The notes below the pieces were generated by a model that saw only the letters and a list, made by a program, of their open reading frames with translations, ran no database searches and was not told the DNA's origin. Shown here one piece after another: positions 20,583 through 26,767 of a stretch of 64,000 bases of DNA. A program made the position numbers and the translations under genes. The number at the start of each line of letters is the position of its first letter. Position 1 is the first letter of the stretch. Origin of the DNA: Paracoccaceae bacterium (GTDB lineage Bacteria; Pseudomonadota; Alphaproteobacteria; Rhodobacterales; Rhodobacteraceae); the NCBI GenBank assembly GCA_035324325.1, contig DAOLBY010000001.1, positions 4,453 to 68,452 of the forward strand, read 5' to 3'.

Positions 20583-22388
20583 CTACCCACCCGCCGCCAT
20601 CCGGCGGAAGGTCTCGTTGCCCGCGACCAGGTCGTCATAGGTGCCCCGGGCCACCAGCTGGCCCCTCTCCATCAGGAAGATCGTGTCGCAGTCGCGCACG
20701 GTCGAGAGCCGGTGCGCGATCAGGATCACCGTCTTGTCGTTGCGGATCGAGGCCACCGCCTCCATCACCACCCGCTCGGTGATCGTGTCGAGCGCGCTCG
20801 TCGCCTCGTCGAGGATCAGAAGCGTGGGGTCGTGGTAGAGCGCGCGGGCGATGCCGATGCGCTGGCGCTGGCCGCCCGAGAGACGCACGCCGCGCTCGCC
20901 GACGATGGCGTCATAGCCCTGCGGCAGGTCGGCGGTGATGAAGTCGTGCAGCGCCGCGAGCCGCGCCGCGCGCTCGACCGCGGCGCGGTCGATCTCTTCG
21001 GGGGGCACGCCGAAGGCGATGTTGGCGGCCACCGAGTCGTCGGTCAGGTAGATGCTCTGCGGCACATAGCCGACCGTGCGCTGCCAGGCGCGCATCGTCT
21101 CGCGCGTGACCGCCACGCCGTCGACGCGGATCTCGCCCTCCTGCGGGACGAGCAGGCCGAGGATCAGGTCGACGAGCGTCGTCTTGCCCGCCCCGGTGCC
21201 GCCGACGATGCCCACGGTATGGCGGGCGGGCACGGTCAGGCTGACCGCCTCGAGCGCGGCGCGGCCGGTCTCGGGATAGGCATAGCCGACGCCGTCGAGA
21301 TCGAGCTGCCGCGTCAGCGCCAGGCGCTGGCCCGGGGGCGCGGCGAGGGGGCGCGCCTGCACGCCGGCCCGCGCCGCCATGATGTCGCCGTGGATGAGGT
21401 CGAGGGCGGGGGTATTGGCGCGGATCGAGGCCAGCCCGTGGTAGATCTGCTGCAGCGCCGGCAGGAGCCGCATCACCGCGAAGGCGAAGACGCCGAGCGT
21501 CGGGATCACCGCCAGGAGATCGCCGTCGCTGCGCAGCAGGAGCACGAAGACGAGGACCAGAAGCACCCCGAAGGTCAGCGCCTCGAGCACGAAGCGCGGC
21601 AGTTCGCCCATGATCTGCAGGATGGCCATGGCGTCGGCGAAACGCCGTGCCGCGCCGTCGAAGCGGTCCAGGTAGCTGTCCTCGAGCCCCAGGAGCTTGA
21701 CCTCGCGGAACCCGCCCGAGGCCTCGTTGGTCAGCCGGTAGCGGTCGCCGCTGCGTTCGAGCATCTCGCGCCCGGCGCGCTGCAGGCGGCGGCGCAGCCA
21801 GACATAGATCGACGCATAGCCGCCCCCCATCAGCAGCGCGGCGAGGATCGAGACCTGCGGATCGACCGCCAGGAGGAAGCCCACCACCGCCAGCGACAGG
21901 AGCGCGCTGGCCAGGAGCCGGAGCGAGGGGACGACCACGCTGTTGACCAGCCGGTCGACCTCGCCCAGCACGCGGTGGCTGACATCGGCGCTGTTGCGTG
22001 TCAGGAACCAGGCGTAGGGCTGGTGCAGATAGGCCGCCAGCAGCCGGCCGGAGATCGCGCGGGTGCGCATGGTCGAGAAGCGGATGATCGCATAGGTGCC
22101 GCCGGCCTTGACCGCGAGCCCCGCCATGACCACGGCGAAGACCGCCGCGGCCAGCGCCATCTGGAAGGCCGGGATCCCGGTGAAGCCGAAGGTCCCGTAG
22201 GCCCAGGACAGGGCGCGGCTTTCCTCGATCGCCCCGGGCCGGGCGAGCACGCCGAGGAGCACGAAGACCGTCGAGATGCCCAGCACCTCGGCGAAGGCGA
22301 CGATCACCATGAGCCCCATCAGGAGCAGGAAGCGCCGCCGCTCGCCGGCGTCGAGCAGGTCGAAGATCTGGCGGTAGACCCGGATCAC
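20583..22388 (-). CDS. ABC exporter, fused 6-TM permease plus ATPase (MsbA/PglK/ExsA-like)
   Basis: 601-aa ORF. Walker A GGTGAGKTT, signature LSGGQRQR, Walker B LLILDEATSALD. No C39 peptidase domain. Sits 89 bp downstream of the PA14/G8 gene on the same strand. Confidence 0.9.
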   Translation of the reverse strand: MIRVYRQIFDLLDAGERRRFLLLMGLMVIVAFAEVLGISTVFVLLGVLARPGAIEESRALSWAYGTFGFTGIPAFQMALAAAVFAVVMAGLAVKAGGTYAIIRFSTMRTRAISGRLLAAYLHQPYAWFLTRNSADVSHRVLGEVDRLVNSVVVPSLRLLASALLSLAVVGFLLAVDPQVSILAALLMGGGYASIYVWLRRRLQRAGREMLERSGDRYRLTNEASGGFREVKLLGLEDSYLDRFDGAARRFADAMAILQIMGELPRFVLEALTFGVLLVLVFVLLLRSDGDLLAVIPTLGVFAFAVMRLLPALQQIYHGLASIRANTPALDLIHGDIMAARAGVQARPLAAPPGQRLALTRQLDLDGVGYAYPETGRAALEAVSLTVPARHTVGIVGGTGAGKTTLVDLILGLLVPQEGEIRVDGVAVTRETMRAWQRTVGYVPQSIYLTDDSVAANIAFGVPPEEIDRAAVERAARLAALHDFITADLPQGYDAIVGERGVRLSGGQRQRIGIARALYHDPTLLILDEATSALDTITERVVMEAVASIRNDKTVILIAHRLSTVRDCDTIFLMERGQLVARGTYDDLVAGNETFRRMAAGG

Positions 22389-22477
22389 GCGGACAGATCC
22401 TCAGCATCCGGCCCGGCGGCCGGCCCGGGCCGGGCCAGCACTAGGCAGCGGCGGCGGCGGCGTCAACCGCAGATGCC

Positions 22478-25400: not shown

Positions 25401-26767
25401 GCGCCGTCGTTGTCGATCACCTGCCGGCCGTTGACGAAGAGCACCGCGCCGTCGTCCGAGGTCAGGAAGAAGGTGTAGCGGCCGGCATTGACCACGTTCA
25501 GGTCGCCGGCGAAGCGTGCGGCGAAGAGGTCGCCGGGGCCGCCCTGCCAGAAGGCCGCCTCGGACTGCAGCCAGTTCAGCGAGGCCACCGTGCCGACGGC
25601 AGCCGGCGTGGCGGTGAAGTCGATCTCGGCCAGGCGCGCCACCGGGGCAGCGAGGGCGAAATACTCGGCATAGAGCCCGGGCCGCAGGGCATCGCCGCTG
25701 CTGCCGTCCTGGTGGCTGAGGCTGCCCTGCGAGATCAGCGCGCGGGCGCCGAAGCTGTCGGGGCCGCGCCATTCCAGCCGCAGGCTCTGGACGCCCCAGT
25801 TCTCGAAGTAGCGGACCTCGATCTGATGGGCGCCGGAGGCGAGGTCGAGCGTGACCATGCGCTCGACCGTGGCATGGGCGCCGTCGTTGTCGATCACCTG
25901 CTGGCCGTTGATGTAGAGCGCCGAGCCGTCGTCCGAGGTCAGGAAGAAGGTGTAGCTGCCGCCGCGCTCGACGTTGAGCTGGCCGGAATAGCGCGCGGCG
26001 AAGAGGTTGATGGGCCCGTCCTGCCAGAACGGCGCGTCGGAGCGCATCCAGTCGAGCCGGTCGACGATGCCGGTGGCCGCGGGCGTGGCGGTGAAGTCGA
26101 TCTGGGCGAGGCTTGCCACCTCGGCGGACAGCCGGAAATAGCTGGCCTGGAGACCGATCTTGCCCGGTTCGGGTTCGGGCTGGGGTTCCGGATCGGGCTC
26201 GGGGGTCGGACCGGGCTCGGGGGTCGGACCGGGCTCGGGCACCGGATCGGGAACCGGATCCGGATTGACCGGAATGGGCTTCATGCTGACCGCCGAGCCG
26301 TCGAGCATCACGCGCTGGTCGCCGGTGTCGGCGCCCTTCCATTCCAGCCGCAGGCTGTGCCGCCCGGTCTGGTCGAAATAGACGACCTCGATGTCATGCA
26401 CCCCGGCCTCGAGCCGGAGGGTCACCCTGCTCTTTTCGATCGTGTCCGAGGACAGGTCGCTGGCGACCAGGAGCACCTCCTGGCCGTTGATGCGCAGCGC
26501 CGCCACATTGTCGGTGCGCAGGAAGAAGGTGTACCTGCCACCGGTGGTGATCGTGAGATCGCCGCTGAAGCGGGCGGCGAAATGATTGACCGCCCCGCCT
26601 TCCCAGAGCGAGGTCTTCATGAGCCCCCAGTGGACCGCGTCGAAGGTATCGACCGCGACCGGGGTCGAGAAGTCGATCTCGTCGAGGCGCTTGATGCTCG
26701 CCGGGATGGTGAAGAACTCGGCCAGGAAGCCGCGCAGGGCCCCGGTTCCCACGGTCTGTATGCTCAT
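22478..26767 (-). CDS. Giant secreted-type protein: 3x PA14, Pro-rich and Cys/His/Asp-rich linkers, G8 domain, parallel beta-helix region, C-terminal cadherin-like domain
   Basis: 1429-aa ORF. PA14-like modules at aa ~10-160, 205-345 and 362-505 (YTFFL.SDDG...L.INGQ.V...LEW.G). G8-like block GDWFDPATWWQGRIPGEGARALIPEG...LRVDGELSF...LEIG at aa ~636-760. C-terminus has VLANDRDPE...GTDSFHYWAADDMGN. No N-terminal signal peptide (MSIQTVGTGALRGFLAEFF). Confidence 0.85.
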   Translation of the reverse strand: MSIQTVGTGALRGFLAEFFTIPASIKRLDEIDFSTPVAVDTFDAVHWGLMKTSLWEGGAVNHFAARFSGDLTITTGGRYTFFLRTDNVAALRINGQEVLLVASDLSSDTIEKSRVTLRLEAGVHDIEVVYFDQTGRHSLRLEWKGADTGDQRVMLDGSAVSMKPIPVNPDPVPDPVPEPGPTPEPGPTPEPDPEPQPEPEPGKIGLQASYFRLSAEVASLAQIDFTATPAATGIVDRLDWMRSDAPFWQDGPINLFAARYSGQLNVERGGSYTFFLTSDDGSALYINGQQVIDNDGAHATVERMVTLDLASGAHQIEVRYFENWGVQSLRLEWRGPDSFGARALISQGSLSHQDGSSGDALRPGLYAEYFALAAPVARLAEIDFTATPAAVGTVASLNWLQSEAAFWQGGPGDLFAARFAGDLNVVNAGRYTFFLTSDDGAVLFVNGRQVIDNDGAHATVERAVTLDLEAGAHQVEVRYFENFGVQSLRFEWQGPDSDGLRAVVGVPSLSHAGPIDAGEVGPCPEDGGNVCLCLCGCGSDPDPLPGDGHDHDPDPLPGDGGSGGSGGDTGGDTGGDTGGGHDHGPTPPMDPAEADAFVAAVMAQPETHAHGDNAAMANEHIRVLSLVPRAEATHVAVADGDWFDPATWWQGRIPGEGARALIPEGISVTYDGESDAALFTLRVDGELSFATDRDTRLVIDTMVVAPSGRLEIGTAARPIEAGVDVQILFADNGNINVAWDPMLVSRGLVSHGAVEIHGAEKTAFLKVAEAPMRGDTTITLAEVPTGWQVGDTLVVSGTHKTGWAWDNTLRRVVHHESQDEEVRIVAINGGTVTLDRALVHNHDTPRDDLFAYVANMTRNITFASENGADTAVHHRGHVMFMHSDDVDVRYAAFDDLGRTDKSRPAFDLGALSSVSADSNIKGRYSFHFHKTGTLDQENPAIALGNTVSGAPGWGFVHHSSHADFIENVAFDVFGAAFAAEDGDETGIWLRNMAIRSEGIGWGEWEVKHANDLPRHDNGRTGDGFFFAGRLVEAAENVAVNTTHGYVWMHRSAPTNPLTANLDHPEIGYGGSTVTVNQAPIQGFRDNEAFGTEIGLIVIKGVAAQYHDVRTVLDGFLNWETRQGTDISYTGHYTMLDFDLIGTRSGGWFEAQAGLVLGSNAFGMVMNGLSIDGFRTGVDVSRQPTFFVPDNQFGIVLIDVEMTGVGTAYQGFNAARHQIMSSDDLVEGRLGFVQGSVTLAVHQDLVLSGTKTDSLGSTSRQMAWEPQTIYRWEVPDLLRSTGYYTLADGRKVALIPDLVADRATGELLKFSYLVTLNISDGDLNSWGVPHNGRYDPGNAAPVVQNDFAATVAGLDVLIDVLANDRDPENRHLAVDGFTDPGNGDVFQQADGTLLYRPNHGFTGTDSFHYWAADDMGNYTRATVTVEVWDL

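Follow-up and report, generated by a model that had tools for sequence, protein, structure and literature searches.

The window analysed here is a 64,000-nucleotide stretch of a Paracoccaceae bacterium genome (contig DAOLBY010000001.1, positions 4,453 to 68,452). Its subject is a reverse-strand gene at positions 22478-26767 (the G8 gene below), whose 1429-amino-acid (aa) product combines three PA14 modules, a G8/CEMIP-type beta-helix and a C-terminal cadherin-like domain. By profile scores the product is a member of the Pfam families G8 and CEMIP_beta-hel, and its gene lies in an exopolysaccharide (EPS) locus that also encodes a complete type I secretion system (T1SS). As a whole, the reading that the protein is a T1SS-secreted, PA14-tethered G8/CEMIP-type beta-helix enzyme processing the EPS of its own locus was given about an even chance of being right. 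Its parts differ in firmness: an extracellular location is very probable, export by the T1SS is fairly likely, action on the cell's own EPS is moderately favoured, and the choice of a depolymerase over a modifier or a lectin is finely balanced.

In the proposed mechanism, the 1429-aa protein would be made without a Sec signal and exported in a single step by the PrtD/HlyD/NodT T1SS of the locus, through a determinant in its C-terminal cadherin-like domain (...EVWDL-COOH). Outside the cell, the three PA14 modules would anchor the enzyme on glycan, and the right-handed beta-helix would cleave (less likely modify) the polymer made by the locus, as a lyase or a hydrolase, along one helix face bearing an invariant Tyr/His/Glu ladder. 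Cleavage would set chain length, release or matrix architecture, comparable to PlyA/PlyB in Rhizobium. The neighbouring ATP-binding cassette (ABC) protein would be a PglK-like flippase or exporter of the lipid-linked glycan on which the enzyme later acts.

Domain architecture, fold and catalytic potential

The open reading frame (ORF) is considered a real gene because its codon-position G+C (GC3 0.91, GC2 0.47) is typical of genes in this genome. An exact-sequence look-up returned no identical record for the 1429-aa protein, nor for the family protein P0021. The gene and its domains are as follows.

22478..26767, reverse strand: gene of the 1429-aa protein, with three PA14 modules, G8/CEMIP-type beta-helix and cadherin-like domain (ORF, Pfam)
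26273..26746, reverse strand: PA14 module 1, aa ~8-165 (Pfam)
25712..26161, reverse strand: PA14 module 2, aa ~203-352 (Pfam; repeat comparison)
25232..25690, reverse strand: PA14 module 3, aa ~360-512, internal duplicate of module 2 (Pfam; repeat comparison)
24968..25231, reverse strand: acidic low-complexity linker, aa 513-600, with HDHD and GGDT repeats (composition)
24479..24826, reverse strand: G8 domain, aa 648-763, first turns of the beta-helix (Pfam PF10162, 61.8 bits)
23816..24139, reverse strand: most conserved beta-helix block, aa 877-984, candidate active or binding face (66-sequence alignment, model)
22481..22765, reverse strand: C-terminal cadherin-like/Big_9 domain, aa 1335-1429, with a V-x-V-E-V-W-D-L end; candidate secretion determinant (Pfam, PDB 36gk)

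The domain order PA14x3-G8-beta-helix-cadherin-like had been proposed from the sequence in a preliminary description of this DNA, and all of its calls were confirmed when the suggested Pfam profile searches were run, and by a high-confidence structure model. PA14 (PF07691) matched in three stretches (E 1.2e-47), and a sequence search of the PDB aligned the PA14 proteins 6qdi and 6qe7. G8 (PF10162) matched aa 648-763 with 61.8 bits against a cut-off of 22.9 (E 7.8e-17, profile positions 2-119 of 124). CEMIP_beta-hel (PF24606) matched aa 920-997 with 32.1 bits against 27.3, a partial match spanning profile positions 29-109 of 212, and overlapping Big_9, Cadherin_5 and Cadherin_4 matches were placed at aa 1335-1426. 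PA14 modules 2 and 3 share 69.6% identity at the protein level and 79% at the DNA level, and each is 43-46% identical to module 1; judged by these values, the internal duplication was confirmed, but it is less recent than the earlier description implied.

The protein is acidic (pI 4.59) and poor in Cys. All 5 Cys residues fall in a 15-residue cluster of the linker, CPEDGGNVCLCLCGCG, ahead of G8; a similar CP..G.D.C.C motif was observed in the distant homologues P0105 and P0106. Acidic linkers rich in HDHD and GGDT are common in the G8 family, perhaps with a role in metal binding.

An AlphaFold2 model of aa 585-1429, built from a 66-sequence alignment, reached a pLDDT of 95.4 and a pTM of 0.94. 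When it was compared with the PDB by Foldseek, the best match was the TMEM2 ectodomain (8c6i, E 4.9e-15, TMq 0.45, ~11% sequence identity), followed by the Klebsiella K1 capsule lyase, phage tailspike depolymerases (LKA1 gp49, phi297 gp61, K64-1 S2-4, P560 and AP22 gp54) and GH110. In the TMEM2 structure the G8 domain forms the start of the helix (PMC10206443). The first helix turns of our model carry no large inserted domain, and no GG/ILEI-type Pfam match was found on the protein at E <= 0.01.

About 75 alignment positions, mostly in the helix core, are invariant among the 66 homologues, which extend down to 43% identity. Within aa 877-984 they comprise H877, H882, R898, T899, D900, K901, N919, R923, Y924, H927, H929, W953, H958, E980 and E984. 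The motifs HVMFMH (aa 877-882), FHFH (926-929), FVHH (955-958) and FAAEDGDE (977-984) lie on strands that open four successive helix turns (model positions 293-297, 342-345, 371-374 and 393-395), a register taken from the DSSP assignment of the model and not from coordinates. Since their strands open successive turns, the four motifs should stack on one sheet of the helix, and the block is a candidate active or binding face in the model. Beta-helix enzymes carry their active sites on the concave face (PMC10206443).

The motifs YxxHxH, HH and EDGxE, invariant in the bacterial family, recur in TMEM2. A single-sequence PDB search with the 1429-aa protein did not reach TMEM2 and a profile search reached it weakly (E 0.11), so homology was rested on Pfam and Foldseek. 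In that weak profile alignment the TMEM2 counterparts read LTRNI...GGHIMIM, GRYPVHFH, IHHSFSR and FFLEDGIE. Vertebrate TMEM2/CEMIP fragments retain YxxHFH, IHH and EDGxE, in an alignment that is illustrative (exon-sized fragments, and a query with a QQQ placeholder linker).

Mutations that abolish activity in the animal proteins map to a GG/lectin-like insert (CEMIP R187; TMEM2 R265, D273 and D286; PMC10206443, PMC12423501). Because the GG/lectin inserts that define CEMIP/TMEM2 function are missing here, the 1429-aa protein was not filed as a hyaluronidase. A wider proposal, which we regard as doubtful, is that an ancient superfamily of enzymes, common to bacteria and animals, has the G8/beta-helix core as its catalytic module, with a cross-kingdom ladder on the helix face as its active site (here Y924, H927, H929, H958, E980, D981 and E984; in TMEM2 'YPVHFH', 'IHH' and 'EDGIE'). 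If true, the bacterial family would work without GG/lectin domains, would be tied by its locus to a defined substrate, and would be a tractable model for whether and how CEMIP and TMEM2 cleave polysaccharide.

Several points count against an enzymatic role. No glycoside hydrolase (GH) or polysaccharide lyase (PL) family of Pfam matched the 1429-aa protein, and a literature search found no experimental study of any bacterial G8 family member. The catalytic activity of TMEM2 is itself disputed (PMC10206443, PMC10474455, PMC12423501): the structure paper could assign it no active site and reported no hyaluronidase activity of the soluble protein (PMC10206443), and a 2025 paper still described what the G8 and PbH1 regions do as unclear (PMC12423501).

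An alternative that gains from these points is a non-catalytic matrix adhesin or lectin, which would bind the cell's own EPS or an algal surface polysaccharide and cross-link cells to the matrix in the manner of RapA lectins and RTX adhesins. The PA14 modules match sugar-binding Lap and ice-binding adhesins in the PDB (6m8m, 5j6y and others), and cadherin-like domains are typical of Rap lectins (PMC9298526). It was nevertheless judged unlikely. The core and the cadherin-like domain are constant in the family and the accessory modules vary (0-3 N-terminal PA14 copies among relatives, RTX repeats after the cadherin-like domain in some). Since PA14 varies while the helix-core residues stay fixed, with a His/Tyr/Arg/Lys/Asp/Glu set in four successive turns, the conservation looks more like that of an active site than that of a lectin surface. 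After TMEM2 the nearest folds are depolymerases, and a purified TMEM2 ectodomain was found by another group to degrade hyaluronan (PMC10474455).

Somewhat less probable still is an extracellular polymer modifier, either a C5-epimerase or a deacetylase- or transferase-like editor of nascent EPS. The AlgE enzymes of Azotobacter are T1SS-secreted beta-helix C5-epimerases. The present protein is likewise a beta-helix protein of an EPS locus with RTX-bearing orthologues, and a UDP-glucose/GDP-mannose dehydrogenase gene near the Hyphococcus homologue hints at uronic acids. Yet there was no epimerase among the structural matches at E <= 1e-3, where lyases and hydrolases ranked highest, and the relatives with reported activity, TMEM2 and CEMIP, are described as depolymerising (PMC10474455, PMC12423501). 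Depolymerisation by the G8/beta-helix core is the reading carried forward below. The earlier suggestion of a glycan-binding or glycan-cleaving matrix enzyme or adhesin is in line with the EPS-locus context and with the fold matches of the model, first to TMEM2 and then to depolymerases.

Secretion route and the adjacent ABC half-transporter

Two transport systems are encoded near the G8 gene.

37961..39718, forward strand: T1SS ABC protein, PrtD subfamily (TIGR01842, 643.5 bits against 510)
39720..41531, forward strand: T1SS membrane-fusion protein, HlyD type I (TIGR01843, 341.5 bits against 208.65)
41329..43203, forward strand: outer-membrane factor, NodT/OEP type, with the real start probably near the HlyD stop (TIGR01845, 232 bits against 210; Pfam OEP)
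20583..22388, reverse strand: PglK/HepA/MsbA-like ABC half-transporter, co-oriented with and 89 nt downstream of the G8 gene (Pfam, NCBIfam, PDB search)

The 1429-aa protein begins MSIQTVGTGALRGF and ends ...VTVEVWDL. Its ORF contains no start codon further upstream, PA14 module 1 starts at about residue 10 and leaves no N-terminal signal peptide, and the two closest full-length relatives share the start (MSIQS... in P0003, MSIQTG... in the L009 protein). The lack of a Sec signal, recognised in the preliminary description, is therefore real and not due to a mis-called start. The protein was ruled out as a substrate of the exosortase XrtD, as it has neither VPLPA nor a transmembrane helix nor an Arg-rich tail.

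The PrtD/HlyD/NodT system at 37961-43203, 11 kb from the G8 gene, was found to be complete as first described, with all three components above their NCBIfam cut-offs. Of 87 tabulated loci, 8, each of them from Rhodobacterales, have PrtD and HlyD genes no more than 10 kb from the G8 gene, and in Roseovarius sp. M141 the T1SS genes adjoin the same Poly_export gene as in the window. No ORF of the window carries RTX repeats, so no other obvious T1SS substrate is encoded there.

A search with the core (aa ~600-1345) returned 670 proteins, the top 120 of which are 44-73% identical to it. Among these 120 listed relatives, 13 carry C-terminal RTX repeats; all 13 end in acidic/hydrophobic residues (...DFLF, ...DHLLF, ...DFFVF), none has a signal-like N-terminus, and the RTX-bearing orthologues have cores 60-65% identical to that of the 1429-aa protein. 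In relatives with neither RTX repeats nor a signal peptide the usual end is V-x-[VI]-[DE]-[VI]-[WFY]-D-[LMIV] (...SDMFDL in Paracoccus). Plain ends (...VTVEI, ...ITVVEP) are found in a Parvularculales clade and a Rhodobacterales subgroup, mostly together with N-terminal signal peptides. In a rule-based test, signal peptides were called in 6 of 31 proteins with aromatic-acidic ends, 0 of 13 with RTX ends and 16 of 30 with plain ends (Fisher P = 0.008 for aromatic-acidic against plain, and 5e-4 for RTX and aromatic-acidic pooled against plain). An earlier version based on a hydrophobicity threshold was weak (P = 0.037 and 0.14), with some termini mis-sorted. The association between N-terminal signal and C-terminus is suggestive, as a pattern among sequences, of a link to secretion. 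In the 1429-aa protein, the C-terminal domain also matched the PDB 'RTX protein' 36gk (E 1.8e-8).

Two further N-terminal forms were observed. P0030, P0036, P0060 and P0069 have a conserved aromatic-rich segment (e.g. MFNFQLWGNLLSF...FPSVWTIQYNLNLL) in place of a signal peptide, and P0048, P0050, P0054, P0061 and P0071 have another form of it; the 1429-aa protein has neither.

Export by the T1SS has to be set against the following. Only about 8 related loci have a T1SS within 10 kb of the G8 gene. The 1429-aa protein has no RTX nonapeptide block or HemolysinCabind match (GGxGxD occurs once), and the NCBIfam model of the T1SS C-terminal target domain did not match it at E <= 0.01. Five or six proteins combine a signal-like N-terminus with a WD[LMV] end. 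The Fisher P values overstate independence because the association is phylogenetically structured, with signal peptides and plain ends in Parvularculales and not in Rhodobacterales. The WDL terminus forms the tip of the final strand in the cadherin-like domain, a strand modelled with confidence, and on the model it may be structural rather than a secretion signal.

On balance the T1SS was still considered a likely route. The C-terminal-signal (type I) secretion originally proposed thus remains plausible, given the RTX-bearing orthologues, the T1SS in 8 of 87 loci and the acidic, Cys-poor composition of the protein. The end [WFY]-D-[LMIV]-COOH of the cadherin-like domain may represent a type I secretion determinant that is independent of RTX and has not been described before. 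As RTX and aromatic-acidic ends alternate within one orthologous family, and Sec signals are commoner with plain ends, the family amounts to a natural experiment on the minimal type I determinant.

The preliminary description had also offered the ABC protein encoded directly after the G8 gene, called MsbA-like, as a route for the protein. The adjacency (89 nt) was verified, and no terminator-like site was found in the gap; a promoter and terminator scan of 20300-27500 returned nothing above shuffled expectation. The affinity of the ABC protein is closest to PglK/HepA/MsbA-type exporters of lipid-linked glycans, and not to T1SS ABC proteins. In the PDB search the top half-transporter was PglK/WlaB (270 bits, E ~4e-79, aa 6-578 against 3-560), MsbA (194 bits) and Sav1866 (~190 bits) were in the match list, and there was no T1SS ABC protein among the best 60 matches. 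NCBIfam scores were 297 bits for PglK, 293 for HepA, 283 for MsbA, 235 for HlyB and 203 for PrtD (nucleotide-binding domain only), the last two below the T1SS subfamily cut-offs of 726 and 510 bits. Likeness to the PrtD of the locus was confined to the nucleotide-binding domain (37% identity). Since its scores are also far under the equivalog cut-offs for PglK and HepA (1000 and 725), the protein is not an orthologue of either.

Orthologues of this ABC protein (50-63% identity) are encoded 104-177 nt downstream of the G8 gene in 11 related loci. In 3 of these 11 (L014, L027 with P0039, and L044 with P0075) the G8 protein combines an N-terminal signal peptide with a plain C-terminus. Because the ABC gene keeps its place even next to G8 proteins with such a signal, the linkage would be functional but would not reflect protein export. 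The simplest reading is that the ABC protein flips or exports a lipid-linked glycan, because Wzy-like, Wzz-like and Poly_export proteins are present and no Wzx/MOP flippase was found among the scanned window ORFs. By sequence it is probably a glycan flippase or exporter of the EPS pathway, and not the exporter of the 1429-aa protein. In full-length alignment, top NCBIfam scores and placement in a glycan-assembly locus without a Wzx found, it resembles PglK of Campylobacter jejuni and HepA of cyanobacteria.

It is very unlikely, by comparison, that the ABC protein is a dedicated, private type I-like exporter that borrows its membrane-fusion protein and outer-membrane factor from elsewhere. The co-orientation, the 89-nt gap without terminator, the adjacency kept in 11 loci and the missing signal peptide would all suit such an arrangement. 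It is disfavoured by the full-length alignment to PglK, by the absence of transmembrane-domain likeness to the PrtD of the locus, by the lack of any membrane-fusion protein gene adjoining the half-transporter, by the loci in which adjacency goes with a Sec-type signal and no aromatic-acidic end, and by the failure to find another flippase in the locus scans. Export of the 1429-aa protein by the PrtD/HlyD/NodT system was retained as the likely route.

The EPS locus and the G8 family

The whole 64-kb window (G+C ~73%) is one EPS locus on a RepA-type replicon, built around XrtD and three VPLPA-CTERM proteins. Its EPS gene set comprises XrtD, the 3 VPLPA-CTERM genes, 8 glycosyltransferase genes, a Wzy-like gene, Wzz/GNVR, Poly_export, a PrsT-like TPR gene and an AAA_22 ATPase gene. 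The principal features outside the G8 and transport genes are as follows.

27414..29669, reverse strand: XrtD, VPLPA-CTERM-specific exosortase with fused EpsI domain, directly upstream of the G8 gene (TIGR04152, 595 bits against 400; Pfam)
29632..30351, forward strand: VPLPA-CTERM protein 1, putative XrtD substrate, ending in ...VPIPLPATGLLLVGALGGLVLLRRRRPAA before the stop (C-terminal motif)
30715..31437, forward strand: VPLPA-CTERM protein 2, paralogue of protein 1 (C-terminal motif)
31984..32742, forward strand: VPLPA-CTERM protein 3 (C-terminal motif)
11474..13207, forward strand: Wzy_C-like polymerase or ligase (profile scans)
45366..48781, reverse strand: EPS export and assembly, with Poly_export/SLBB (45366-46262) and a PrsT-like TPR protein (46259-48781) (Pfam, NCBIfam)

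The three VPLPA-CTERM ORFs end in ...PIPLPA[TG]GLLL..LRRRR(P/T)A(A) before the stop, and proteins 1 and 2 are in tandem. None of the three has a Pfam match, and their true starts are likely to be internal Met codons (MFALNGIK..., MFALDRIK...). The XrtD ORF has 751 aa, of which the model matches aa 280-749, leaving an N-terminal extension of ~280 aa (relatives have ~530 aa); in the 603-aa HlyD ORF the model match begins at aa 189. These long extensions may be real, or an artefact of long open frames in DNA of 73% G+C.

Downstream of the G8 gene lie the ABC half-transporter, a GT2 glycosyltransferase, a DUF6077 membrane protein, a 2OG-Fe(II) oxygenase, a GT4 glycosyltransferase and the Wzy_C-like protein, followed in the same direction by more glycosyltransferases, acyltransferases, a GFO/epimerase fusion and a polyketide synthase (PKS). 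On the other side of the XrtD block, a replication and partition module at 33466-37771 comprises RepA (Pfam RPA), ParA and a ParB/RepB-like gene, with 81-82% DNA identity to RepA plasmids of Rhodovulum and Cereibacter. It stands amid the EPS genes, with the XrtD block on one side and the T1SS on the other, an arrangement that recalls the RepA-I 'biofilm plasmids' known from roseobacters (PMC5030684). Beyond the T1SS are a rhomboid protease, a putative outer-membrane protein, Poly_export, the PrsT-like TPR protein, the AAA_22 ATPase, Wzz/GNVR, a ParA-like kinase, DegT and more glycosyltransferases. The rhomboid-family intramembrane protease gene (43200-43808, reverse strand) is placed between the gene of the T1SS outer-membrane factor and those for Poly_export and TPR.

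The EPS genes are flanked by a modular PKS (KS-AT-KR-DH..., 3-4484, reverse strand) and by an AMP-binding/luciferase-like/PP-binding protein (61972-63975, reverse strand). A set of PKS, AMP-binding, luciferase, PP-binding and 4'-phosphopantetheinyl-transferase genes also occurs near the G8 gene in L003 and L006, which hints at a lipid or polyketide moiety on the polymer.

The 1429-aa protein belongs to a large bacterial family. An exhaustive search returned 4338 clusters (at 50% identity) at E <= 1e-3 and 1714 at E <= 1e-30, and GTDB species genomes contain at least 582 family loci; the statement that G8 is otherwise known from animals is therefore not upheld. The loci are mostly from Rhodobacterales, Parvularculales (Hyphococcus, Marinicaulis) and Roseibium/Labrenzia, and the best genome relative is from a Fuscovulum metagenome-assembled genome (MAG), at 72% identity. 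Two family members in Ilumatobacter MAGs (Actinomycetota bins L046 and L052; 52-54% identity, with signal peptides and ends ...CEPLTVLSP) reflect either horizontal transfer or a binning error.

Homologues were found in comparable surroundings. That of Ruegeria conchae (L001, 57% identity) belongs to an EPS cluster that also encodes XrtD, Wzz, a CpsD kinase and glycosyltransferases. In Roseovarius sp. M141 the order is TPR, Bac_transf, AAA, ParA-like, XrtD, 2OG-Fe oxygenase, G8, ABC, GT4, Poly_export, T1SS membrane-fusion protein and ABC, which largely matches the gene content of the window. Equivalent EPS-type loci surround the G8 gene in metagenomic and Hyphococcus loci. A distant homologue (36% identical core) on a Rhodobacteraceae plasmid is annotated with a type I secretion C-terminal target domain, and its neighbours are GH16 enzymes, glycosyltransferases and a tyrosine autokinase.

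Neighbourhoods were counted by tblastn with the window proteins in the 45 related loci for which 20 kb or more of context was available, a match being scored within 10 kb of the G8 gene; with the strict thresholds applied, the counts are lower bounds. TPR and AAA_22 genes were each found in 13 loci, the 2OG-Fe oxygenase in 12, Wzy-like genes in 11, the GFO-epimerase in 10 and XrtD in 9. The 2OG-Fe(II) oxygenase (14429-15751, reverse strand, in the window), which lies directly between XrtD and G8 in Roseovarius sp. M141, may hydroxylate the protein or the glycan of the system.

Degradation of foreign (algal or host) glycans for nutrition or colonisation, with the EPS-locus position incidental, has very little probability: many relatives do come from marine, algae-associated bacteria of the Roseobacter group and PA14 modules are common in glycosidases such as Xyl3A, but the gene is enclosed by XrtD and by the probable EPS flippase and glycosyltransferases, the same surroundings are met again in Rhodobacterales, Parvularculales and Hyphomicrobiales, and the window ORF scans showed no sugar-uptake or catabolic genes adjoining it.

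With the cell's own EPS as the preferred substrate, the G8 protein is, by analogy, an obvious candidate for the cognate glycanase of XrtD/VPLPA-CTERM loci, which are common on plasmids and chromids of Rhodobacterales, including relatives of the roseobacter biofilm plasmids (PMC5030684). The family's mere existence is unsurprising, because it is large and already annotated ('G8 domain-containing protein', 'PA14 domain-containing protein'). In the literature searched we found no experimental work on XrtD/VPLPA-CTERM loci, nothing relevant on PA14 proteins in Roseobacter exoproteomes, and no description of four features: the consistent placement in XrtD-type EPS loci, the conserved pairing with a PglK-like ABC protein, the alternation of RTX, aromatic-acidic and Sec export signals, and the invariant motif ladder common with TMEM2.

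Comparison with known systems

The likeness to beta-helix depolymerases (the Klebsiella K1 lyase, LKA1 gp49, AP22 gp54 and RbmB of Vibrio cholerae) lies in the right-handed beta-helix and is at fold level only, because TM-scores are low (0.15-0.25). Those proteins are trimeric phage proteins or small single-domain enzymes and have no G8, PA14 or cadherin-like modules. RbmB is likewise described as encoded inside the biosynthetic cluster of the polymer that it cleaves (PMC11637428).

With CEMIP and TMEM2, the only characterised relatives, the 1429-aa protein has in common a G8 domain fused into a long right-handed beta-helix and followed by beta-sandwich domains, a CEMIP_beta-hel score above cut-off, the best structural match, and the YxxHFH, HH and EDGxE motifs. 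It differs in lacking their GG/lectin-like helix insert, in having PA14 and cadherin-like modules instead, and in being a bacterial protein without signal peptide or transmembrane segment, for which hyaluronan is not the expected substrate. A large bacterial family that keeps the motifs, has no lectin inserts and has a genetically defined substrate makes the question of CEMIP/TMEM2 catalysis directly testable in bacteria.

In many EPS systems polymer length and biofilm architecture are tuned by an encoded glycanase, examples being PlyA/PlyB (PMC9298526) and RbmB (PMC11637428). The parallel drawn at the outset with the Rhizobium PrsDE system and PlyA/PlyB proved apt, since those glycanases share the C-terminal cadherin-like domain (PMC9298526). 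PlyA and PlyB are beta-1,4-glycanases without a Sec signal, whose catalytic region precedes a C-terminal cadherin-like (Ra/CHDL) domain; PrsDE, a PrtD-type T1SS, exports them, and at the cell surface they cleave the nascent EPS of the producing cell (PMC9298526). The window protein has the corresponding order of beta-helix and cadherin-like domain, and its locus the corresponding PrtD/HlyD/outer-membrane factor system. The catalytic module here would be of G8/CEMIP type, ~700 aa long and accompanied by three PA14 modules, and the surrounding locus, carried on a RepA-type plasmid, centres on the exosortase XrtD. Membership in the PlyA/PlyB family is not claimed; the likeness lies in architecture, and by that analogy the 1429-aa protein would work alike.

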